Shown here piece after piece: positions 22,817 to 30,978 of a stretch of DNA of 31,390 nucleotides. The DNA is from an uncultured Melioribacter sp. Its GTDB lineage: Bacteria > Bacteroidota > Ignavibacteria > Ignavibacteriales > Melioribacteraceae. The stretch is from assembly GCA_964387835.1 (NCBI GenBank), contig CAYLYR010000001.1:1-31390 (forward strand), written 5' to 3'. The notes under the pieces are model-generated. The model saw only the letters and a program-made list of their open reading frames with translations, had not been told where the DNA came from and searched no databases. The position numbers were made by a program, and so were the translations under genes. How positions within the stretch are numbered: position 1 is the stretch's first letter; each line of letters begins with the position of its first letter.

Positions 22817-25800
22817 ATGAAGAAAATTTCCATTCTATTTTTATTCCTTTTTTCCGCTTCTCTGAATTTTGGGCAAGTAAGCGCCAAATTGTTTCGCTAT
22901 CCCGATATTTCGGCATCTCAAATCACTTTTGTTTATGCCGGAGATATATGGGTTGCACCTAAGGAAGGCGGAACAGCGGTAAAGTTAAGTTCTCCGAAAG
23001 GAGAAGAATTTATGCCGAAATTTTCTCCTGACGGGAATTTTATAGCTTTTAGCGGTAATTACGAAGGCAATACCGATGTATATATTATTCCTACGATGGG
23101 AGGAACGCCAAAGCGTATTACAAATCATCCGATGGGCGAAAGAGTTTTGGATTGGACCCCGGACGGAAAGAATTTGCTTTTTGCATCTGCAAGAAAAAGC
23201 GGGAGACAGAGATTCGACCAAATTTATAAAATCAGTGTTGACGGCGGTTTGCCGATAAAGCTGCCTGTGCCGTATGGTGAATTCGGAGAAATTTCTCCCG
23301 ACGGGAAAACGTTGGCATATACTCCGAGGACGCGTCTTTTCAGAACGTGGAAAAGATACCGAGGAGGCATGGCGACTGATATTTGGCTCTTTAATTTGAA
23401 AGATTATTCATCGAAGAACATTACGAATGAGGCGGCTAACGATGAACTCCCTATGTGGCACGGAGATATAATTTATTTCCTTTCGGATAGAGGCGCTAAC
23501 GAGAGATTTAATATATGGAGTTATAACACAAAATCCGGTGAATTTAAACAACATACTTTTTTTAAAAATTATGATGTTCATTTTCCATCAATAGGACCGG
23601 ACGATATAATATTCGAAGCCGGAGATAATTTATATACGCTAAATCTGAACGCCGATAAATATAATAAAGTTGATATTAAAGTTGTTACCGATAATATTAC
23701 ACTCCTTCCGGTAAAGAAAAAAGTTAAATCATATTTGAAAAATGCCGCTATTTCTCCTCATGGTAACCGTGTTGTTACAGAGGCGCGCGGTGAGTTATTC
23801 TCGCTGCCTGCAAAGGAAGGCGCAGTTTACGATTTAACAAACTCGTCAGGTGTTGCAGAACGTTTTCCCGCTTATTCCCCCGACGGGAAAAAAATAGCAT
23901 TCTGGAGCGATAAAACAGGCGAATATGAACTTACGGTTGTTAATAGTGATAATCCTTCAAAGCAGAAAACCTTAACAAATACCGGCTCGAAATTTAAGTA
24001 TAACTTGTATTGGTCGCCCGATGCAAAAAAAATTGCGTGGGTCGATAATGCAATGCGAATCAGATATTACGATTTTGATTCGGGAAAAATTATTGATGTA
24101 GATAAAGGACTTTTTATGTTCGAAGGAGAATTGGAAGGTTTTAAAGTCAGTTGGTCTAATGACGGCAGATGGATGACCTATTCCCGCGGTTTGGATAACC
24201 AGCATCACGCTCTTTTTATTTATGATACCAAATCAAGCCATCTGCACCAAGTTACTTCCGGATTTTATTCCGATACCGAACCTGTTTTTGATCCGAACGG
24301 GAAGTATCTTTATTATTTGACTAAAAGAACTTTCAGGCCGGTTTACAGCAGCATGGACAACACTTTTATTTACCCGAATGCAGTCAATTTGGCGGTAGTT
24401 CCATTAACTAAAGATATTCCTTCTCCATATCTTCCCGAAAACGATACGGTAAAAACGGAATCGAGTAAAAATAAAAGTAAAGTCGATAAGGGAAAAAAGA
24501 AAGATAAAAAAGATAAGGTTAAAATAGATTTTAATGATTTTGAAAGACGAGCACAATTGATACAAGTAGCTCCGGGAAATTTGTCAAATCTTAATGCGGT
24601 TGACGGAAAACCTGTTTATGTTGTGTATCCGAAGGCAGGTATTTTAGACGGAAAAAGCGAAATTAAATATTACGATTTTAAGTCGAAAAAAGAGAAGACG
24701 ATTCTAAGCGGAGCAAGTCAGTATGAAATTTCCGCTGACGGGAAAAAAATGTTGGTAATGAAAGGTGTCGGGCTTTATGTTATTGATATTAAGCCGAAGC
24801 AAAAACTTAAGAAGAAACTCCCGACATCTCAGATGATAATGACTATTGTGCCTCGCGAGGAGTGGAACGAGATATTTACCGATGCTTGGAGAATGGAAAG
24901 AGACTTCTTTTATGACCCCAATATGCATGGCGTTAATTGGGAAGGAATTAGAAGACGTTACGGGAATTTTGTAAAATATGCGGTTACTCGCCGCGATGTT
25001 AATTTTCTGATTGGCGAGATGATTGGGGAAATCAGTTCTTCGCACACTTATAAAGGCGGCGGGGATTACGAATCCGCCAAACATGAAAAAACCGGATTAC
25101 TCGGAATTGACTGGGCTGTTGATAACGGACACTTCCGAATTAAAAAAATTATTACCGCCGCTCCGTGGGATATCAGCGCACGCTCTCCTTTAACTCTTTC
25201 CGGAATTAATGTTAAAGAGGGAGATTACATTCTCGCAGTTAACGGAGTTCCATTGGATGTTTCTCAAGAGCCGTATGCGGCATTTGAAGGCTTGGCTAAT
25301 AAAACCGTCGAACTGACTGTCAACGATAAGCCTACGTTTGAAGAAGCGAGGAAAGTTTACGTAAAAACAATCCCCGATGAAACAAAGTTAAGACATTCGG
25401 CGTGGGTTGAAGCAAACAGGGAATATGTTGCCAAGATGACGGATAACAAAATAGGTTATATTTATGTTCCCAATACCGGGACGGAAGGACAGAATGAATT
25501 ATTCCGACAGTTCTTCGGACAGATGGATAAAAAGGGTTTAATTATCGATGAGCGATTTAACAGCGGCGGACAAATTCCCGATAGGTTTGTTGAATTATTA
25601 AACAGAAAGCCCTTGGCATTTTGGGCTGTTCGAGATGGTAAAAATTGGCAGTGGCCCCCGTTTGCGAATTTCGGCCCGAAAGTAATGTTGATAAATGGTT
25701 GGAGCGGTTCCGGCGGAGACGCTTTCCCTGACTTTTTCCGCAAACTTAAAATCGGTAAATTAGTCGGATTAAGGACTTGGGGCGGATTAATCGGAATTAG

Positions 25801-26044
25801 CGGAACGCCGTCATTGATTGACAACGGATATTTGACCGTTCCGACATTTAGAATGTATAATCCGGACGGGACTTGGTTTAAGGAAGGACACGGAGTGGAT
25901 CCGGATATTAAGGTTGTGGATAATCCGACCGACTTGGCAAAGGGAATTGACCCTCAACTTAAGGCTGCGGTTAAAGAAGTGCTGCATGAGCTTAAAAATT
26001 ATCCTAATCCTTATCCAAAACAACCTCCGTACCAAAAGAGATAA
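22817..26044 (+). CDS. Tricorn protease-like S41 peptidase (PD40 propellers, PDZ, peptidase S41)
   Basis: Signal peptide; repeated FSPDG/WTPDG/ISPDG/YSPDG/WSPD; SSSHTY; DERFNSGG; catalytic SGSGGDAF; GLRTWGGLIG; GHGVDPDI. Confidence 0.95.
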   Translation: MKKISILFLFLFSASLNFGQVSAKLFRYPDISASQITFVYAGDIWVAPKEGGTAVKLSSPKGEEFMPKFSPDGNFIAFSGNYEGNTDVYIIPTMGGTPKRITNHPMGERVLDWTPDGKNLLFASARKSGRQRFDQIYKISVDGGLPIKLPVPYGEFGEISPDGKTLAYTPRTRLFRTWKRYRGGMATDIWLFNLKDYSSKNITNEAANDELPMWHGDIIYFLSDRGANERFNIWSYNTKSGEFKQHTFFKNYDVHFPSIGPDDIIFEAGDNLYTLNLNADKYNKVDIKVVTDNITLLPVKKKVKSYLKNAAISPHGNRVVTEARGELFSLPAKEGAVYDLTNSSGVAERFPAYSPDGKKIAFWSDKTGEYELTVVNSDNPSKQKTLTNTGSKFKYNLYWSPDAKKIAWVDNAMRIRYYDFDSGKIIDVDKGLFMFEGELEGFKVSWSNDGRWMTYSRGLDNQHHALFIYDTKSSHLHQVTSGFYSDTEPVFDPNGKYLYYLTKRTFRPVYSSMDNTFIYPNAVNLAVVPLTKDIPSPYLPENDTVKTESSKNKSKVDKGKKKDKKDKVKIDFNDFERRAQLIQVAPGNLSNLNAVDGKPVYVVYPKAGILDGKSEIKYYDFKSKKEKTILSGASQYEISADGKKMLVMKGVGLYVIDIKPKQKLKKKLPTSQMIMTIVPREEWNEIFTDAWRMERDFFYDPNMHGVNWEGIRRRYGNFVKYAVTRRDVNFLIGEMIGEISSSHTYKGGGDYESAKHEKTGLLGIDWAVDNGHFRIKKIITAAPWDISARSPLTLSGINVKEGDYILAVNGVPLDVSQEPYAAFEGLANKTVELTVNDKPTFEEARKVYVKTIPDETKLRHSAWVEANREYVAKMTDNKIGYIYVPNTGTEGQNELFRQFFGQMDKKGLIIDERFNSGGQIPDRFVELLNRKPLAFWAVRDGKNWQWPPFANFGPKVMLINGWSGSGGDAFPDFFRKLKIGKLVGLRTWGGLIGISGTPSLIDNGYLTVPTFRMYNPDGTWFKEGHGVDPDIKVVDNPTDLAKGIDPQLKAAVKEVLHELKNYPNPYPKQPPYQKR

Positions 26045-26250: not shown

Positions 26251-27099
26251 TTGAAGGCACAATTTTCATTAAAAAATATATTTTTCAAGGTTGGATTGGG
26301 GTTAAACCTACTTCTGATTATTACAGGAATTAATCTCGGGCAGAAGAAAACGGGAAGCGATAATATAGGTAAAACTTTCCTAACCGATTTTTCCTCTGCG
26401 GTAACTGTTGGTTTTAATACCGCGGAACGTCCGCTCCGGTTTTCTCAATCGGATTGGGTTAGAGTTGGAGCTGTAACGTTCGGAACCGCGGCATTATTCT
26501 TAGCCGATAAAAGTGTACGCTCTTTTGCTTTATCAAACCAAAATGATTTTAACAATAATTTATTCGGGTTTGATAAATTTTACGGCAGCGGCTATACAGC
26601 GTTATTTACAGCTGGCATTTACGGAGCGGGTTTGTTCTCGGGCAACGATGATGTCCGAAAACTTGGACTATATTCTTCGGAGGCATTTGTAATTTCCGGA
26701 ATAGGCGCTGCTATTTTAAAAGTGATTTTAGGGAGAAGAAGACCCTATAAAGGCGAGAGCAATTTATTCTTTAATCCGTTTACTTTAATCGATAACGATT
26801 TTCACTCACTCCCAAGCGGACATACGACGGTTGCATTTGCCGTATCCGAAGTAATGGCTGAGAGCATAGATAACATTTACTGGAAATCGTTATGGTACGG
26901 CGCGGCAGGTTTAACCGCCTTATCGCGAATTTATCACAACCAGCATTGGGCTTCGGATGTTTTTCTTGGAGCTGTAATCGGTTATTACGTGGGGCAATTT
27001 GTTACGGATGTTAATAAAAACAAACGTGTCAAAACTTCACATATCCGAATCTCTCCGTTAGTTTCATTTAACGGAATGGGAATTACAGTCTCTTTTTGA
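26251..27099 (+). CDS. PAP2 family membrane phosphatase
   Basis: All three PAP2 motifs: K-x6-RP (KVILGRRRP), PSGH, SR-x5-H-x3-D (SRIYHNQHWASD); TTG start is uncertain. Confidence 0.9.
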   Translation: MKAQFSLKNIFFKVGLGLNLLLIITGINLGQKKTGSDNIGKTFLTDFSSAVTVGFNTAERPLRFSQSDWVRVGAVTFGTAALFLADKSVRSFALSNQNDFNNNLFGFDKFYGSGYTALFTAGIYGAGLFSGNDDVRKLGLYSSEAFVISGIGAAILKVILGRRRPYKGESNLFFNPFTLIDNDFHSLPSGHTTVAFAVSEVMAESIDNIYWKSLWYGAAGLTALSRIYHNQHWASDVFLGAVIGYYVGQFVTDVNKNKRVKTSHIRISPLVSFNGMGITVSF

Positions 27100-27139: not shown

Positions 27140-28969
27140 CTATCTCATTTCCAAATTATTTTTGTATAAGCTTAACTCTTCAAGTATTTTGTTAAAATAA
27201 TCTTGTAAGTTAGTTAAATCGTTTAAGGCGCTTTTATATGAATTCTTTAACGATTCTTTCTGCTCGCTGAACATTTTGCGGTAATATTCAATGCCGGAAG
27301 AAAGATTGTTTGTGAATGTATCGAAATATTTAAATTGTTTTTCAGTGAAAAGAGGAGATGCATCGTCGATTTTTTTCTTAAGGAAATCGAGATAAAGTTT
27401 CAACTCTTTAATGAACATATTAGGACGATTCTTTGTGTTTAAAATATTTATGCGTCCGTAAATATGATCTGCCATTTGTTTCAGCGTGAACTCACCTGAA
27501 TAATAAGCCATATTTGGTCCGGGACAAACCGAAACCGCCGGTCCCTCCATTTTGTAATCGAGATTGTTCAAAACCAAAACCGAGTTGGATAGACCATTGC
27601 AGAGACATTCTTTCGCTATTATTTTGTTATATTCACTTTTGTAATCCGCAGGCGGAAGATTTTTCTCTTTTAATTCGGTAAGTTTTAAGTTTATATATTG
27701 TGATGAAGCCGTGCAAATCGGAATTTCGGTAAACTCCGTATTAAAGGTTAAATATTTTTTCGGACAAGAGCTTCCCGGTTTACCTTCTTTTGCAAGTTCA
27801 ATGCGTTCAATATCTTTCGAACTTCCGCGGACATTATTAAATGGAACGCCGAGCGGTGAAGCATCCGAGAGATATAAATCATCTTCGGTTGCATCGCTTA
27901 AAAGTTTCATCGTCTCTTCATCAATACTTGTAGCTTCAGGAACAAGAAGGAAAGGAGTTCCCCAGCCAACAGAATCGATATTGTAATTATTAAGTAAAAA
28001 TCTATGTTCCTCTCCGGTGCCGACTCCTCCCTGAGCGGTAATTTTCAGCTCCGGCATCTCATTTGGAACTTGCTTCCCTTTTCTTTCTAATGCGGACTTA
28101 AAAATCTCGTAAGTGGTTTTGTGTAAAGTTTCCCTTTGTTTCTTAAACTCTTCAAGGATTGGTCCCAGCAAATAACCGTCGGAGGCAAAAGCATGCCCGC
28201 CGCAGTTCAGTCCCGATTCAATGCGATATTCCGAAACCCAAAGACCTTTCTTTGCGAAAAATTTTCCTTGAATTATTGCCGAGCGATAGTCGCTTACCTT
28301 AATGATAATTTTCTTTTTGATTCTTCCGAGTGCATCCGGATAGAAATCGGAAAAGTTCTCCATGTAAGTAAATAATCTTGGATTCATTCCCGCGGATAAA
28401 ACCACAGAGGATTCCAAATCGCTTTTGGCGTAGCCTCTGATGGCGGCGTGAGCATCATTTTGTTCAATCGGCAGTTGCTTTTTCCCTTTGTAATTAGGAC
28501 CGTCAACTTTCGTCATTATGTTTACATCAATACTTCCTATTGACAAATTATCCTGAAGCCATTTTTTTACTTCTTTTATATTGTCTGAATTTGTTTTAAC
28601 TATTCGCTCCCATTGTTTGCTAAGTTCGGAAGCGGTTGGAAGCAATTCGAAATATTTTTCGATTTCACTATAGCCATTGGAAACGGACTCAATTAACATA
28701 TCAAACTTTTCATGGACTATTTCATTTACCAAATTAAGGTAGGCGGTTATTCGTTCAGCCCTGAAGTCCTCTCTTTTGGGAGTAATCGGCTCGAAGTGTT
28801 TGTTAAATTTTTCCGCATAAAATTTTCTCATCTTCTCAACGAGATTATGTTCAAATATTGACATCACAGAAGCAATGCCGAGATGAGCAATTTTAATCGG
28901 GGAATCAATTGTGTAGCTCAATCCCATAACGGGAATATGAAATGTATGTTGTGATTTTTTGTTTGTCAT
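27140..28969 (-). CDS. 609-aa protein with a nitronate-monooxygenase/FabK/FabX-like FMN TIM-barrel signature and a C-terminal Cys cluster
   Basis: Colinear motifs IPVMG, DVNIM, VLSAGMNP, IKVSDYRSA, IESGLNCGGH, ITAQGGVG, SVGWGTPFL, SPLGVPF; then CPKK, ICTAS, CLCNGL, VCPG. Confidence 0.6.
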   Translation of the reverse strand: MTNKKSQHTFHIPVMGLSYTIDSPIKIAHLGIASVMSIFEHNLVEKMRKFYAEKFNKHFEPITPKREDFRAERITAYLNLVNEIVHEKFDMLIESVSNGYSEIEKYFELLPTASELSKQWERIVKTNSDNIKEVKKWLQDNLSIGSIDVNIMTKVDGPNYKGKKQLPIEQNDAHAAIRGYAKSDLESSVVLSAGMNPRLFTYMENFSDFYPDALGRIKKKIIIKVSDYRSAIIQGKFFAKKGLWVSEYRIESGLNCGGHAFASDGYLLGPILEEFKKQRETLHKTTYEIFKSALERKGKQVPNEMPELKITAQGGVGTGEEHRFLLNNYNIDSVGWGTPFLLVPEATSIDEETMKLLSDATEDDLYLSDASPLGVPFNNVRGSSKDIERIELAKEGKPGSSCPKKYLTFNTEFTEIPICTASSQYINLKLTELKEKNLPPADYKSEYNKIIAKECLCNGLSNSVLVLNNLDYKMEGPAVSVCPGPNMAYYSGEFTLKQMADHIYGRINILNTKNRPNMFIKELKLYLDFLKKKIDDASPLFTEKQFKYFDTFTNNLSSGIEYYRKMFSEQKESLKNSYKSALNDLTNLQDYFNKILEELSLYKNNLEMR

Positions 28970-29196: not shown

Positions 29197-29655
29197 ATGA
29201 AAACAAGATTCTCTTTAACATCAGCATTAATCGCAGGATTTATCGGCACGATTGCCATGACAGCTTTTACTTATATGGCGCCTCTAATGGGATTTAAAAT
29301 GGATATTCCCGGGATGCTGGCACACACGATGCATGCCCCTATTATTGTCGGTTGGCTGGCGCATTTTATGGTAGGTGAAACTTTGGCGGTAGGTTACGCA
29401 TTATTTTATCTTAAAATATTAAAGCAAGATGCTAATGCGAAAACGGGAGCAATATACGGAATATTACCTTGGTTATTAGCTCAGTTGGTTGTAATGCCGA
29501 TGATGATGGTTATGAACGGAATGCCTTATTCCGCCGGGTTATTTTCAGGCTCATTTTTAATGGCGATGGCAAGTTTTGTTGGACATTTAATATACGGCGC
29601 ATTTGTAGGCGTGACTTTTAAACCTGAACTTGAAACGGCAGAAGCTATTTCTTAA
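29197..29655 (+). CDS. Small Met/His-rich four-TM membrane protein (DUF6789/DUF2938-like)
   Basis: Four hydrophobic segments; conserved-looking GWLAHFMVG and VGHLIYG; SD GGAG at 29187-29190. Confidence 0.7.
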   Translation: MKTRFSLTSALIAGFIGTIAMTAFTYMAPLMGFKMDIPGMLAHTMHAPIIVGWLAHFMVGETLAVGYALFYLKILKQDANAKTGAIYGILPWLLAQLVVMPMMMVMNGMPYSAGLFSGSFLMAMASFVGHLIYGAFVGVTFKPELETAEAIS

Positions 29656-29675
29656 TTGGAATTTTGGAGAAGAGA

Positions 29676-30230
29676 ATGAAAAGTATAATGAAAGTGAACA
29701 GAGAAAACGCATCGCCTAAGTTAAACTCTATTTTTGATAAGATTGAATCGGCTTACGGTAAAGTGCTCAACTTGTTTTCGATATTGGGAAATTCCGAAAA
29801 TGCCTTGGAGTCGTATCTGCAGTTCTCAAATGCTCAGGTTAAAAACTCCTTTTCTCCGATAGAACGCGAAGTGATTTATCTTGCGGCATCTGAAACTAAT
29901 GGTTGTATTTACTGCGTTTCGGCGCACACGTTAAAAGCAAAAATGTTAGGATTGAGCGATGAAGAAATAATCGAAGTAAGAGAAGGAATTTATCCCGACC
30001 CGAAATTTGAAACTTTGATTACGTTGACGAGTGAGATTATTAAAAACAGAGGAAATGTAGAGGAATCGGTTATTAGTGATTTTTACAATGCCGGATATGA
30101 TCCGGAAAACTTAGTTGATTTAATTGCTTTAATAACCGAAATGACCTTTTCAAATTATTTGGGAAGACTTTCTAAACCTTGTATAGATTTTCCACAAGCG
30201 CCTATTTTATCTGAAAAAGTAATTGTTTGA
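29676..30230 (+). CDS. Carboxymuconolactone decarboxylase/AhpD-like peroxidase-related protein (ATG 29676; ORF open to TTG 29664)
   Basis: EREVIYLAASETNGCIYCVSAH (E-x11-CxxC-x3-H, AhpD-type); GGAG SD before 29676. Confidence 0.88.
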   Translation: MKSIMKVNRENASPKLNSIFDKIESAYGKVLNLFSILGNSENALESYLQFSNAQVKNSFSPIEREVIYLAASETNGCIYCVSAHTLKAKMLGLSDEEIIEVREGIYPDPKFETLITLTSEIIKNRGNVEESVISDFYNAGYDPENLVDLIALITEMTFSNYLGRLSKPCIDFPQAPILSEKVIV

Positions 30231-30254
30231 TACTCCTCCTGCCAAACCCAAAGG

Positions 30255-30290
30255 AAGTGCGTTAGCAAGTTTGCTTTCGCACTTTTTTTT
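30255..30290 (+). terminator. Intrinsic terminator between the convergent CMD and Crp genes
   Basis: AAGTGCG/CGCACTT outer stem, AGCAA/TTGCT inner stem, followed by a T-run. Confidence 0.75.
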
Positions 30291-30978
30291 ATTCAATTAT
30301 TTCTCTTAGTCTCTTTTTGTCATTTATTATCAGCTTACTCCTGTCAAAGTCTATCAAACCTTTTTTCCTAAGGGAAGTTAAAATTGTATTTACGGTTTGA
30401 CGTGAACAAGCTGTAAGCTCGCCGATTGTTTGATGTTTTAGAAACGGTTTAACAAAGATTTGTTCCCCGACAGTTTTACCGTTCTTTTCAGCATATCTTA
30501 AAATGAATGAAGTAACGCGCTGATCGGCATCCTTGAAAATTAAATCCTCAATGCGTTCCGAAAACTTTTTCAGCTTAAGTCCGATCACTTTGGTCATCTT
30601 TAAATTCAGAGCGGGATTTTTTTCAATAAACTTAGCGAGATCGTTTTTATTGATTGCGCAAATTCTGCTCGGATCGACCGTTACAGCGTAATCGTGTCTT
30701 TCGCTTTCATCGAGAAAAGCCATTTCGCCGAAGACTTCCCCCGGATTAATTATTGCAATTATTTTCTCGCTTCCATCGGGTAAGTACTTCGTTATTTTCA
30801 CTCTCCCTTTTTTTAAGAAATAAATTGTTTGGGAAGGTTCGCTTTCAAAATAAACCGGTTCATTGGTCTTGGTTTCGGTATCTATAATTAGTTTATCTAA
30901 TTCCATCATACTTTTTGAATCAAGGTTTTCAAAAAGATTAAAATTTTCCAAATACCATAATTTTGATTTGTCAGACAT
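30289..30978 (-). CDS. Crp/Fnr-family transcriptional regulator
   Basis: cNMP-type beta-roll (IYFLKKGRVKI, GEVFGEMAFL) and C-terminal HTH (HQTIGELTACSRQTVNTIL); no FNR Cys cluster. Confidence 0.93.
   Translation of the reverse strand: MSDKSKLWYLENFNLFENLDSKSMMELDKLIIDTETKTNEPVYFESEPSQTIYFLKKGRVKITKYLPDGSEKIIAIINPGEVFGEMAFLDESERHDYAVTVDPSRICAINKNDLAKFIEKNPALNLKMTKVIGLKLKKFSERIEDLIFKDADQRVTSFILRYAEKNGKTVGEQIFVKPFLKHQTIGELTACSRQTVNTILTSLRKKGLIDFDRSKLIINDKKRLREIIE

Follow-up and report, generated by a model that had tools for sequence, protein, structure and literature searches.

A FabX-related, enlarged protein family without a name, encoded in an uncultured Melioribacter sp.

What kind of enzyme is made from a long, intact gene whose product no protein-family model recognises? 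The question is raised by a 31,390-nt stretch of DNA (the window, i.e. the whole stretch analysed) from an uncultured Melioribacter sp. (GCA_964387835.1, contig CAYLYR010000001.1), which carries on its minus strand a single open reading frame (ORF) for a 609-aa protein, P0001, with its ATG at 28969 and its stop codon at 27140-27142. An initial annotation, made from the sequence alone, had read this protein as an unannotated flavin mononucleotide (FMN) TIM-barrel oxidoreductase with a likely Fe-S site, akin to nitronate monooxygenase (NMO), FabK and FabX, and had suggested fatty-acid desaturation or nitro/NO-related redox as its role. Here we show that P0001 belongs to a real, widespread and unnamed enzyme family (the query family), which we favour as a distant, enlarged branch of the FabX clade in the NMO/FabK superfamily. 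We consider it rather likely that P0001 is a FabX-like FMN/[4Fe-4S] oxidoreductase acting on an acyl chain bound to acyl carrier protein (ACP).

27140..28969, minus strand: complete gene for the 609-aa protein P0001 plus its stop codon (ORF list, translation, full-length homologues in at least 8000 clusters)

A conserved family that databases do not recognise

Compared with Pfam, NCBIfam and the Protein Data Bank (PDB) by phmmer and two family profiles, P0001 gave chance-level or coiled-coil matches only, e.g. to eIF3h_C and apolipoprotein. It did not reach the Pfam NMO threshold and showed no NMO match even at E ≤ 10, and the NCBIfam FabK model (TIGR03151) did not match it. Among 51 homologues, reaching down to 29% identity with P0001 and used as the conservation set throughout, a single one matched Pfam NMO (PF03060), at E 1.4e-4. 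Relatives are numerous. A word-indexed search returned at least 8000 (as clusters at 90% identity), the best of them full-length and 56-100% identical, and an exhaustive HMMER scan of 50%-identity representatives returned 1045 clusters of the query family. The names among the matches listed were all 'hypothetical protein' and none had a Pfam domain; the ESM Atlas and AFDB clusters held unnamed relatives only, save one automatic '2-nitropropane dioxygenase' label. A literature search, within the library that could be searched, found no paper describing the family. The enzyme is therefore unannotated, as first supposed, with no Pfam model and with members named as hypothetical proteins, and its kinship to the NMO superfamily is visible solely by profile-profile comparison (94-95%) and by structure.

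The translation carries IPVMG (residues 12-16), DVNIM (148-152), VLSAGMNP (190-197), IKVSDYRSA (223-231), IESGLNCGGH (250-259), ITAQGGVG (310-317), SVGWGTPF (333-340) and SPLGVPF (371-377), and then CPKK (402-405), ICTAS (418-422), CLCNGL (455-460) and VCPG (481-484), so that the NMO-type motif series and the four cysteine motifs listed in the initial annotation are all present and colinear. Its pairing of these motifs with NMO/FabK/FabX patterns was reproduced by hhalign against L017, a FabX orthologue that matches FabX chains over the full length at 4.8e-71. The N-terminal pairs are HIPVMG/LPVIQGGMG, DVNIM/GVNIM, SAG/GAG and VSDYRSA/VSSSRAA, and the C-terminal pairs are NCGGH/KAGGH, AQGG/AAGG, GWGTPF/QMGTMF and SPLGVPF/SPVGMPG. 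The motifs exceed chance, given the residues that are invariant in all 51 homologues: N150, M152, S192, A193, K224, D227, S230, Q234, R249, E251, S252, G258, H259, G314, G335, S371, P372, C402, C419 and C457. Three further cysteines are nearly so, C256 and C455 in 50 of the 51 homologues and C482 in 49.

The query family is closest to the FabX clade

The FabX orthologue L017 was picked from the NMO-type genes of the phylum (Bacteroidota), as was a 'bridge' family of ~425-aa proteins (L024-L027), whose best PDB match is FabX at 7e-28. With hhalign, the query-family profile matched the bridge family at 95.2% (25% identity over 330 columns) and L017 alone at 93.8% (304 columns), compared with 44% for other, non-FabX NMO types and 6.8% for FabK-only sequences. 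This ranking, with which the structural one below agrees, indicates that the affinity of the query family is specifically to the FabX clade. The kinship first proposed is thus confirmed in a narrower form, pointing to the FabX clade and not to FabK. The query family is new at the family level within a known kind of enzyme, and what is new in it is a remodelled cluster site, an extra active-site cysteine, ~250 added residues and new fusion partners.

The fold is a TIM barrel nearest to FabX

An AlphaFold2 model of P0001, built from a 35-sequence alignment, has a pLDDT of 82 and a pTM of 0.85 and shows eight strands alternating with helices. Low confidence is confined to the loops at 153-156, 255-261 (NCGGH), 372-376, 456-458 and 475-479, of which 456-458 and 475-479 lie at or beside conserved cysteines and, judging from the model, perhaps need a bound cofactor for order. 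A structural search against FabX, FabK and NMO had been named as a check of the TIM-barrel assignment; the model is a (β/α)8 barrel, and FabX is its best match. Foldseek against the PDB placed Helicobacter pylori FabX on top (E 3.6e-10), followed by PfaD, trans-AT enoyl reductases, FabK and NMOs, and the top 42 matches were all FabX, PfaD, enoyl reductases, FabK or NMO. Using VIA-align, the model aligned with FabX at Z 25.2 and an rmsd of 3.7 Å over 318/366 residues (model 2-506 against FabX 4-363), and the alignment therefore extends into the C-terminal [4Fe-4S] subdomain of FabX. PfaD followed at Z 22.7, FabK at about Z 22 and NMOs at Z 18-19, with a range of 19-23 for FabK, PfaD and the trans-AT polyketide synthase (PKS) enoyl reductases as a group; the next fold, that of IMPDH, reached Z 14.8.

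28859..28948, minus strand: residues 8-37, barrel strands 1-2 with the HIPVMG start motif (strands at 10-12 and 33-37; aligned to LPVIQGGMG)
28535..28858, minus strand: residues 38-145, helical insertion that follows strand 2 and is specific to the query family (unpaired in the alignment with the FabX-like protein)
27830..28534, minus strand: residues 146-380, predicted FMN TIM-barrel core (Foldseek/VIA-align, hhalign columns, invariant residues)
27143..27439, minus strand: residues 511-609, poorly conserved helical tail (helices 518-536, 543-569 and 571-608)

The barrel core holds DVNIM, SAGMNP, KVSDYRSA, ESGLNCGGH, AQGGVG, GWGTPF and SPLGVPF. FabX and the bridge family have a shorter insertion at the place of residues 38-145, which P0001 enlarges with modelled helices at 41-54, 69-98, 101-107, 115-126 and 131-141. 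The ~250 extra residues, helical insertions and tail noted at first are accounted for by this insertion, by a long extra helix at 268-296 and by the tail at 518-608. Conservation within the query family is lowest in the insertion and in the C-terminal tail (mean of the tail 0.36, versus 0.52 for the whole protein). In a profile search the tail weakly matched apolipoprotein A-I repeats (E 0.007), which may be a composition effect only or may hint at membrane or lipid association.

Catalytic residues and a candidate [4Fe-4S] site

28193..28219, minus strand: residues 251-259, ESGLNCGGH active-site loop (H259 in 51/51, C256 in 50/51; aligned to EGPKAGGH)
27440..27829, minus strand: residues 381-510, Cys-rich subdomain, candidate [4Fe-4S] site (FabX structural alignment, Cys alignment and conservation)

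The catalytic histidine, which the initial annotation had described as kept, is the invariant H259. It pairs with the GGH histidine of the FabX orthologue, equivalent to H182 of FabX, the catalytic histidine next to FMN (PMC8626469). C256, close beside this histidine, is specific to the query family. The motifs predicted to bind FMN pair by hhalign as AQGGVG/AAGGI and as GWGTPF/QMGTMF or QVGTRF, with the order of the superfamily kept.

FabX ligates its [4Fe-4S] cluster through C300, C304, C308 and C320, in the motif Cx3Cx3Cx11C (PMC8626469), and these align with C289, C293, C297 and C309 of L017. By hhalign, 'GssC(402)P' of the query family pairs with 'KTC(289)P' of L017 and 'PiC(419)tas..YQ' with 'PYC(309)ivq..YQ'; therefore, C402 corresponds to ligand 1 of FabX (C300) and C419 to ligand 4 (C320). 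The FabX motif itself is not found in the query family, where positions 2 and 3 (C304 and C308) are not cysteine. A segment that FabX does not have carries C455xC457 and C482, and these three cysteines probably replace the two lost ligands, giving a candidate remodelled cluster site. The likely Fe-S site thus survives in its conserved cysteines and in the alignment of C402 and C419 with FabX ligands, but not in positions 2 and 3. Conservation of the GGH and Cys residues, on which the proposal had been staked beforehand, was found across the query family. From these residues we infer that P0001 binds FMN and an Fe-S cluster.

A predicted ACP dock on a basic helix

28244..28294, minus strand: residues 226-242, basic helix, predicted ACP dock (complex model; homologous to FabX helix alpha7)

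The genome to which the window belongs (94.7% complete) has one acpP, in a fabG-acpP-fabF cluster. We predicted the complex of P0001 with this AcpP, with FMN and [4Fe-4S] riding along, in three runs and with three controls. The complex model scored 0.66, versus 0.00 for the best control. At least 91% of contacts were common to the runs, and the partner pLDDT was 86 or higher. Of solved complexes, 58 of 80 attain the mark used for the docking score, as do 2 of 110 mismatched pairs; this calibration holds only roughly here because our own alignment and riding ligands were used.

On the ACP, the modelled contacts are D35-S36-L37, which from its sequence is likely to be the phosphopantetheine-attachment motif, together with residues 39-41, 44 and 56. 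On P0001 they are residues 194-197 (the SAG-MNP loop), 201 and 229-237 (229-230, 233-234 and 236-237). For ACP binding FabX uses helix alpha7, which is positively charged and in which K152 and R164 are located (PMC8626469). In our alignment, FabX numbering counted back from H182 reproduces the published E175, G180, R164 and K152; helix 226-242 is the homologue of alpha7, and R229 falls at about FabX K152. This helix has a net positive charge in 51/51 homologues, and the modelled interface is more conserved (0.66) than the whole protein (0.52).

Fusions to an NADPH diflavin reductase

In 13 clusters at 90% identity, at least one of them from a named member of Kiritimatiellia, the whole query domain, down to 64% identical, is followed by C-terminal Flavodoxin_1, FAD_binding_1 and NAD_binding_1 domains. 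The diflavin fusion indicates that the query domain exchanges single electrons with a flavodoxin-like partner, and it opens a way to the redox partner that FabX-type enzymes use. A PlsC-type acyltransferase domain is fused in one representative, found in two samples, and points to acyl-chain chemistry. Other fusions carry an N-terminal TetR/AcrR domain (four clusters) or a GT1 domain (one representative).

The query family and FabX paralogues do not overlap

Named carrier genomes come from Melioribacteraceae, which hold the closest named relatives of P0001, from other Ignavibacteria, Bacteroidales, many Flavobacteriaceae, Cytophagales and Chitinophagales, and from Calditrichaceae (Calditrichota), Latescibacterota, Planctomycetota and metagenome-assembled genomes (MAGs) of Chlorobiota. 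Members were also found in sulfate reducers, such as Desulfosarcina sp. BuS5, and in Krumholzibacteriia and Kiritimatiellia. Maribacter luteus, Arenibacter catalasegens and Carboxylicivirga linearis are among the cultured carriers. Given this range of lineages, both aerobes and strict anaerobes are among the carriers. In 401 high-quality genomes of the phylum Bacteroidota, the query family is present in 145 genomes and 81 of 179 genera, nearly always as a single copy, and is patchy even inside genera.

The bridge family occurs in 85 of the same 401 genomes, comprising 81 of the 86 genomes of one bacterial family (f9), 3 of 3 of another, and one genome (G065) from a bacterial family that has the query family in 7 of its 10 genomes. 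Another 4 of the 401, from 4 further families, have canonical FabX. None of the 89 genomes with these FabX-clade paralogues (bridge and canonical) carries the query family, against a background of 36%. As the 89 genomes span at least seven lineages, the chance of no overlap would be ~0.64^7, i.e. ~0.04, if the lineages were independent. This mutual exclusivity is no more than suggestive.

A second sample comprised 41 genomes, 15 of which carry the query family. Complementarity with fatty-acid desaturases, also considered, was ruled out by this sample, since 11 of the 15 carriers have a desaturase as well. An NMO/FabK-type match at E ≤ 1e-20 is present in 10 of the 15. In the window genome we found no FabA above the cut-off, no fatty-acid desaturase, no FabX-type gene and no flavodoxin. 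It has a FabK-type gene (C18:7902-8764, minus strand; L001/L002), which the NMO model matches as two pieces that overlap, the N-terminal one containing a TGA; a frameshift or a mistake in the draft assembly could account for the split. No usable fatty-acid profile of a Melioribacter relative came out of a literature search.

Genomic neighbourhood

No conserved neighbour was found: no gene is a neighbour in more than 15 of the 81 loci taken from named genomes, and the immediate neighbours of query-family genes fall in 118 different clusters. A Pfam tally of 42 operon-like neighbours showed no enrichment, and a family-stratified set of 68 loci held generic regulators and sigma factors only.

In the window, a PAP2-family phosphatase gene (26251-27099, plus strand) converges on the P0001 gene and ends 41 bp from its stop codon, and upstream of it lies a gene for a 1075-aa tricorn-type protease with PD40 beta-propeller repeats and Tricorn_C1, PDZ_Tricorn and Peptidase_S41 domains (22817-26044, plus strand). 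On the other side (29197-30978), genes for a DUF6789 membrane protein and a CMD (AhpD-like) protein are divergent from P0001, with a Crp/Fnr-family regulator beyond them, 1.3 kb from the P0001 gene. None of the PAP2, DUF6789/CMD and Crp neighbours recurs in relatives. Scans for a sigma-70 promoter and an intrinsic terminator gave nothing beyond shuffled sequences. A Crp/Fnr-controlled module was considered and is unsupported, as a scan for FNR/CRP boxes gave 32 matches versus 36 expected and the Crp neighbour is not conserved.

In some Flavobacteriaceae the query gene adjoins nadA-nadB (quinolinate synthase and L-aspartate oxidase) in several gene orders, often with an Rrf2 regulator near and with PEP carboxylase (PEPC) and amt-glnK upstream (L064, L066, L071, L075, L078, L082, L083, L091, L092, L096, L098, L101, L105, L114 and L115). 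A general linkage to nadA-nadB, Rrf2 and PEPC was rejected, being real in some Flavobacteriaceae and absent from the family-stratified 68 loci. In Desulfosarcina sp. BuS5 (L119), thiC, cobT and a MiaB-like radical-SAM gene come after the homologue, and three radical-SAM genes lie upstream on the opposite strand, a context that could hint at a link to Fe-S/radical-SAM cofactor genes in certain lineages. In two gene orders (L006, L007, L036 and L120) the query gene directly adjoins the gene of a DbpA-type DEAD-box RNA helicase, which is upstream in Ignavibacteria-type loci and downstream in L120, where a cold-shock protein gene lies upstream. This adjacency would fit cold-regulated expression, with too few cases to build on.

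Proposed function and its alternatives

The reading of P0001 as an FMN/[4Fe-4S] oxidoreductase that resembles FabX and has an acyl chain on ACP as its substrate, which we rate as rather likely, is put forward because the fold, the clade placement, the histidine, the two retained ligands with three new cysteines, and the basic helix all agree. What the analysis shows is the fold, the conservation of residues, the profile homology and the distribution over genomes; the ACP substrate, the reaction and its direction are proposed. P0001 is proposed to be a cytoplasmic protein. Acyl-ACP would dock on the basic helix 226-242, so that its phosphopantetheine arm would bring the thioester into the barrel, where FMN and His259, possibly aided by Cys256, would form or remove the α,β double bond of the acyl chain. 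Electrons would move singly between FMN and a C-terminal [4Fe-4S] cluster, held by C402, C419 and two of C455, C457 and C482, and would pass to or from an external partner, which may be ferredoxin, flavodoxin or, in one clade, the fused NADPH diflavin reductase.

Within this reading, the version that we favour, as possible rather than probable, gives the query family the role of FabX/UfaA, i.e. that of an oxygen-independent acyl-ACP dehydrogenase/isomerase for unsaturated fatty acids. The exclusivity with FabX favours the introduction of double bonds, whereas the diflavin fusion favours the reductive direction. The fatty-acid role suggested at the outset thus gains from the ACP docking model and from the FabX exclusivity, while its companion, nitro/NO redox, finds no support.

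Several observations weigh against a FabX-like enzyme for acyl-ACP. Only two of the four ligand positions of FabX are retained, and no fatty-acid gene is among the conserved neighbours. Besides its rough calibration, the docking score may reflect memory of the solved FabX-ACP complexes (7e1r, 7e1s), i.e. likeness and not binding. The exclusivity is confounded by phylogeny and ecology, since a single bacterial family supplies 81 of the 89 FabX-clade genomes; the desaturase found in 11 of the 15 carriers is oxygen-dependent; and the patchiness even within a genus means that the query family is not an essential housekeeping step. A fused NADPH diflavin reductase usually delivers electrons to the catalytic domain, which suits a reductase better than a FabX-type dehydrogenase. 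An estimate from textbook redox potentials indicates that acyl-thioester dehydrogenation cannot reduce NADP+.

These last points bear on the first alternative, which keeps the same architecture and ACP-bound substrates and reverses the direction: the protein would be an enoyl-ACP (C=C) reductase that serves a special acyl chain and depends on ferredoxin, flavodoxin or an NADPH diflavin partner, with electrons passing from [4Fe-4S] to FMN and then to the double bond. The 13-cluster diflavin fusion is laid out like P450 BM3 and CysJ, whose catalytic domains receive electrons from NADPH; after FabX, the closest structures are those of FabK, PfaD and trans-AT enoyl reductases (Z 20-23), and the ACP docking model fits equally well. 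We nevertheless consider it unlikely. By sequence the query family sides with the FabX clade rather than with FabK, its Cys subdomain takes, by analogy with FabX (PMC8626469), the place of the NAD(P)H site of FabK, and the window genome already has a FabK-type gene. The exclusivity, moreover, is with FabX-type and not with FabK-type genes, the latter or NMO-type ones being matched in 10 of the 15 carriers.

A flavo-Fe-S enzyme with the FabX fold could instead act on a substrate that is not ACP-bound, such as a CoA thioester, a membrane lipid, a quinone or an intermediate of a cofactor pathway, with the helical insertion and the tail forming the true substrate or partner site. The ~250 residues without a FabX counterpart, the lack of linked fatty-acid genes, the weak likeness of the tail to amphipathic apolipoprotein helices and the scattered links to Fe-S cofactor genes (nadA-nadB with Rrf2 in some Flavobacteriaceae, thiC with radical-SAM genes in BuS5) would all fit. 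Yet the ACP docking model outscores its controls and places ACP on a homologous, conserved basic helix, the nadAB link is absent from the stratified loci, which show no bioB link either, and the PlsC-type fusion speaks for acyl-chain chemistry, so that we regard this alternative as quite unlikely.

A genuine nitronate monooxygenase, nitroalkane oxidiser or oxygen-dependent NMO-type detoxifier, perhaps in a Crp/Fnr-controlled nitrosative-stress module, is very improbable: it has in its favour the superfamily fold (Z 18-19 to NMOs), the one homologue that touches Pfam NMO and the nearby Crp-family regulator, but NMOs rank structurally below FabX, PfaD and FabK and reach just 44% by hhalign in their non-FabX types, FNR/CRP boxes are no more frequent than chance beside a Crp neighbour that is not conserved, the query family occurs in the strict anaerobe Desulfosarcina sp. 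BuS5, and an Fe-S cluster is absent in all other characterised NMO-family members (PMC8626469).

Returning to the FabX-like enzyme for ACP-bound acyl chains, a wider claim, which we hold to be doubtful, is that the query family, as a FabX-type acyl-ACP dehydrogenase/isomerase, is the route, so far missing, by which much of the Bacteroidota/Ignavibacteria and other anaerobe-rich phyla make unsaturated acyl chains without oxygen, and that its remodelled Fe-S domain and added helical modules couple the enzyme to a dedicated electron partner. If true, the diflavin fusions would reveal the type of that partner and address the electron acceptor of FabX/UfaA enzymes under anoxia. If the query family acts on acyl-ACP, it would be a new enzyme of bacterial lipid synthesis in environmentally dominant groups and could explain how membrane unsaturation is adjusted without FabA, desaturases or FabX. 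The family merits a database model of its own, which would turn thousands of 'hypothetical proteins' into 'FabX-like FMN/Fe-S oxidoreductase'.

Comparison with known systems

The closest characterised enzyme is FabX (H. pylori HP0773; structures PDB 7e1q and 9lt5), an FMN/[4Fe-4S] decanoyl-ACP dehydrogenase and trans-2 to cis-3 isomerase. It turns decanoyl-ACP into cis-3-decenoyl-ACP and is needed in Helicobacter to make unsaturated fatty acids. It is the best structural match of P0001, including the C-terminal subdomain, and shares with it the catalytic histidine, the basic helix after the 'SS' strand, ligands 1 and 4, and an insertion after strand 2 at the same place. The two differ in that identity is ~15% with no direct hidden Markov model (HMM) match, and that P0001 has 609 aa versus 363 aa in FabX. 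C304 and C308 are missing in the query family, which has the new C455xC457 and C482 in an inserted segment, an extra active-site cysteine (NCGGH versus LSGGH in FabX), a ~108-aa helical insertion, the 268-296 helix and a ~95-aa tail. Some query-family members are fused to a diflavin reductase, and to our knowledge no such fusion has been described for FabX.

The bridge proteins (e.g. L026:1165-2433, minus strand) share C402, C419 and the CLC motif with the query family and likewise have no Cx3Cx3Cx11C, and within the phylum their distribution is strictly complementary to that of the query family. Unlike the query family, they pass the Pfam NMO threshold and match FabX directly; their length is less by ~180 aa, the tail being absent and the insertion reduced, and an extra CxxC follows the CLC motif where the query family has the single C482. 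Bridge proteins L024-L031 show six conserved cysteines (C-x12-C-x25-CxC-x7-CxxC), a cluster site unlike that in the FabX crystal structure. They may be the Bacteroidales 'FabX' of PMC11300592.

FabK, PfaD and the trans-AT enoyl reductases have in common with the query family the FMN TIM barrel, the GGH histidine and ACP-bound substrates, but NAD(P)H binds to them directly and an Fe-S cluster is lacking, and the profile similarity to FabK is insignificant. The Cys subdomain of FabX sits at the NAD(P)H site of FabK (PMC8626469), and by analogy that of the query family would occupy the same NAD(P)H-binding region. NMOs (PF03060) share the superfamily fold and the motif order, but are oxygen-dependent and without Fe-S, whereas P0001 is sub-threshold in Pfam and its family occurs in strict anaerobes. 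FabX is the one characterised NMO-family member with an Fe-S cluster (PMC8626469), and it is with FabX that the query family has its closest likeness.

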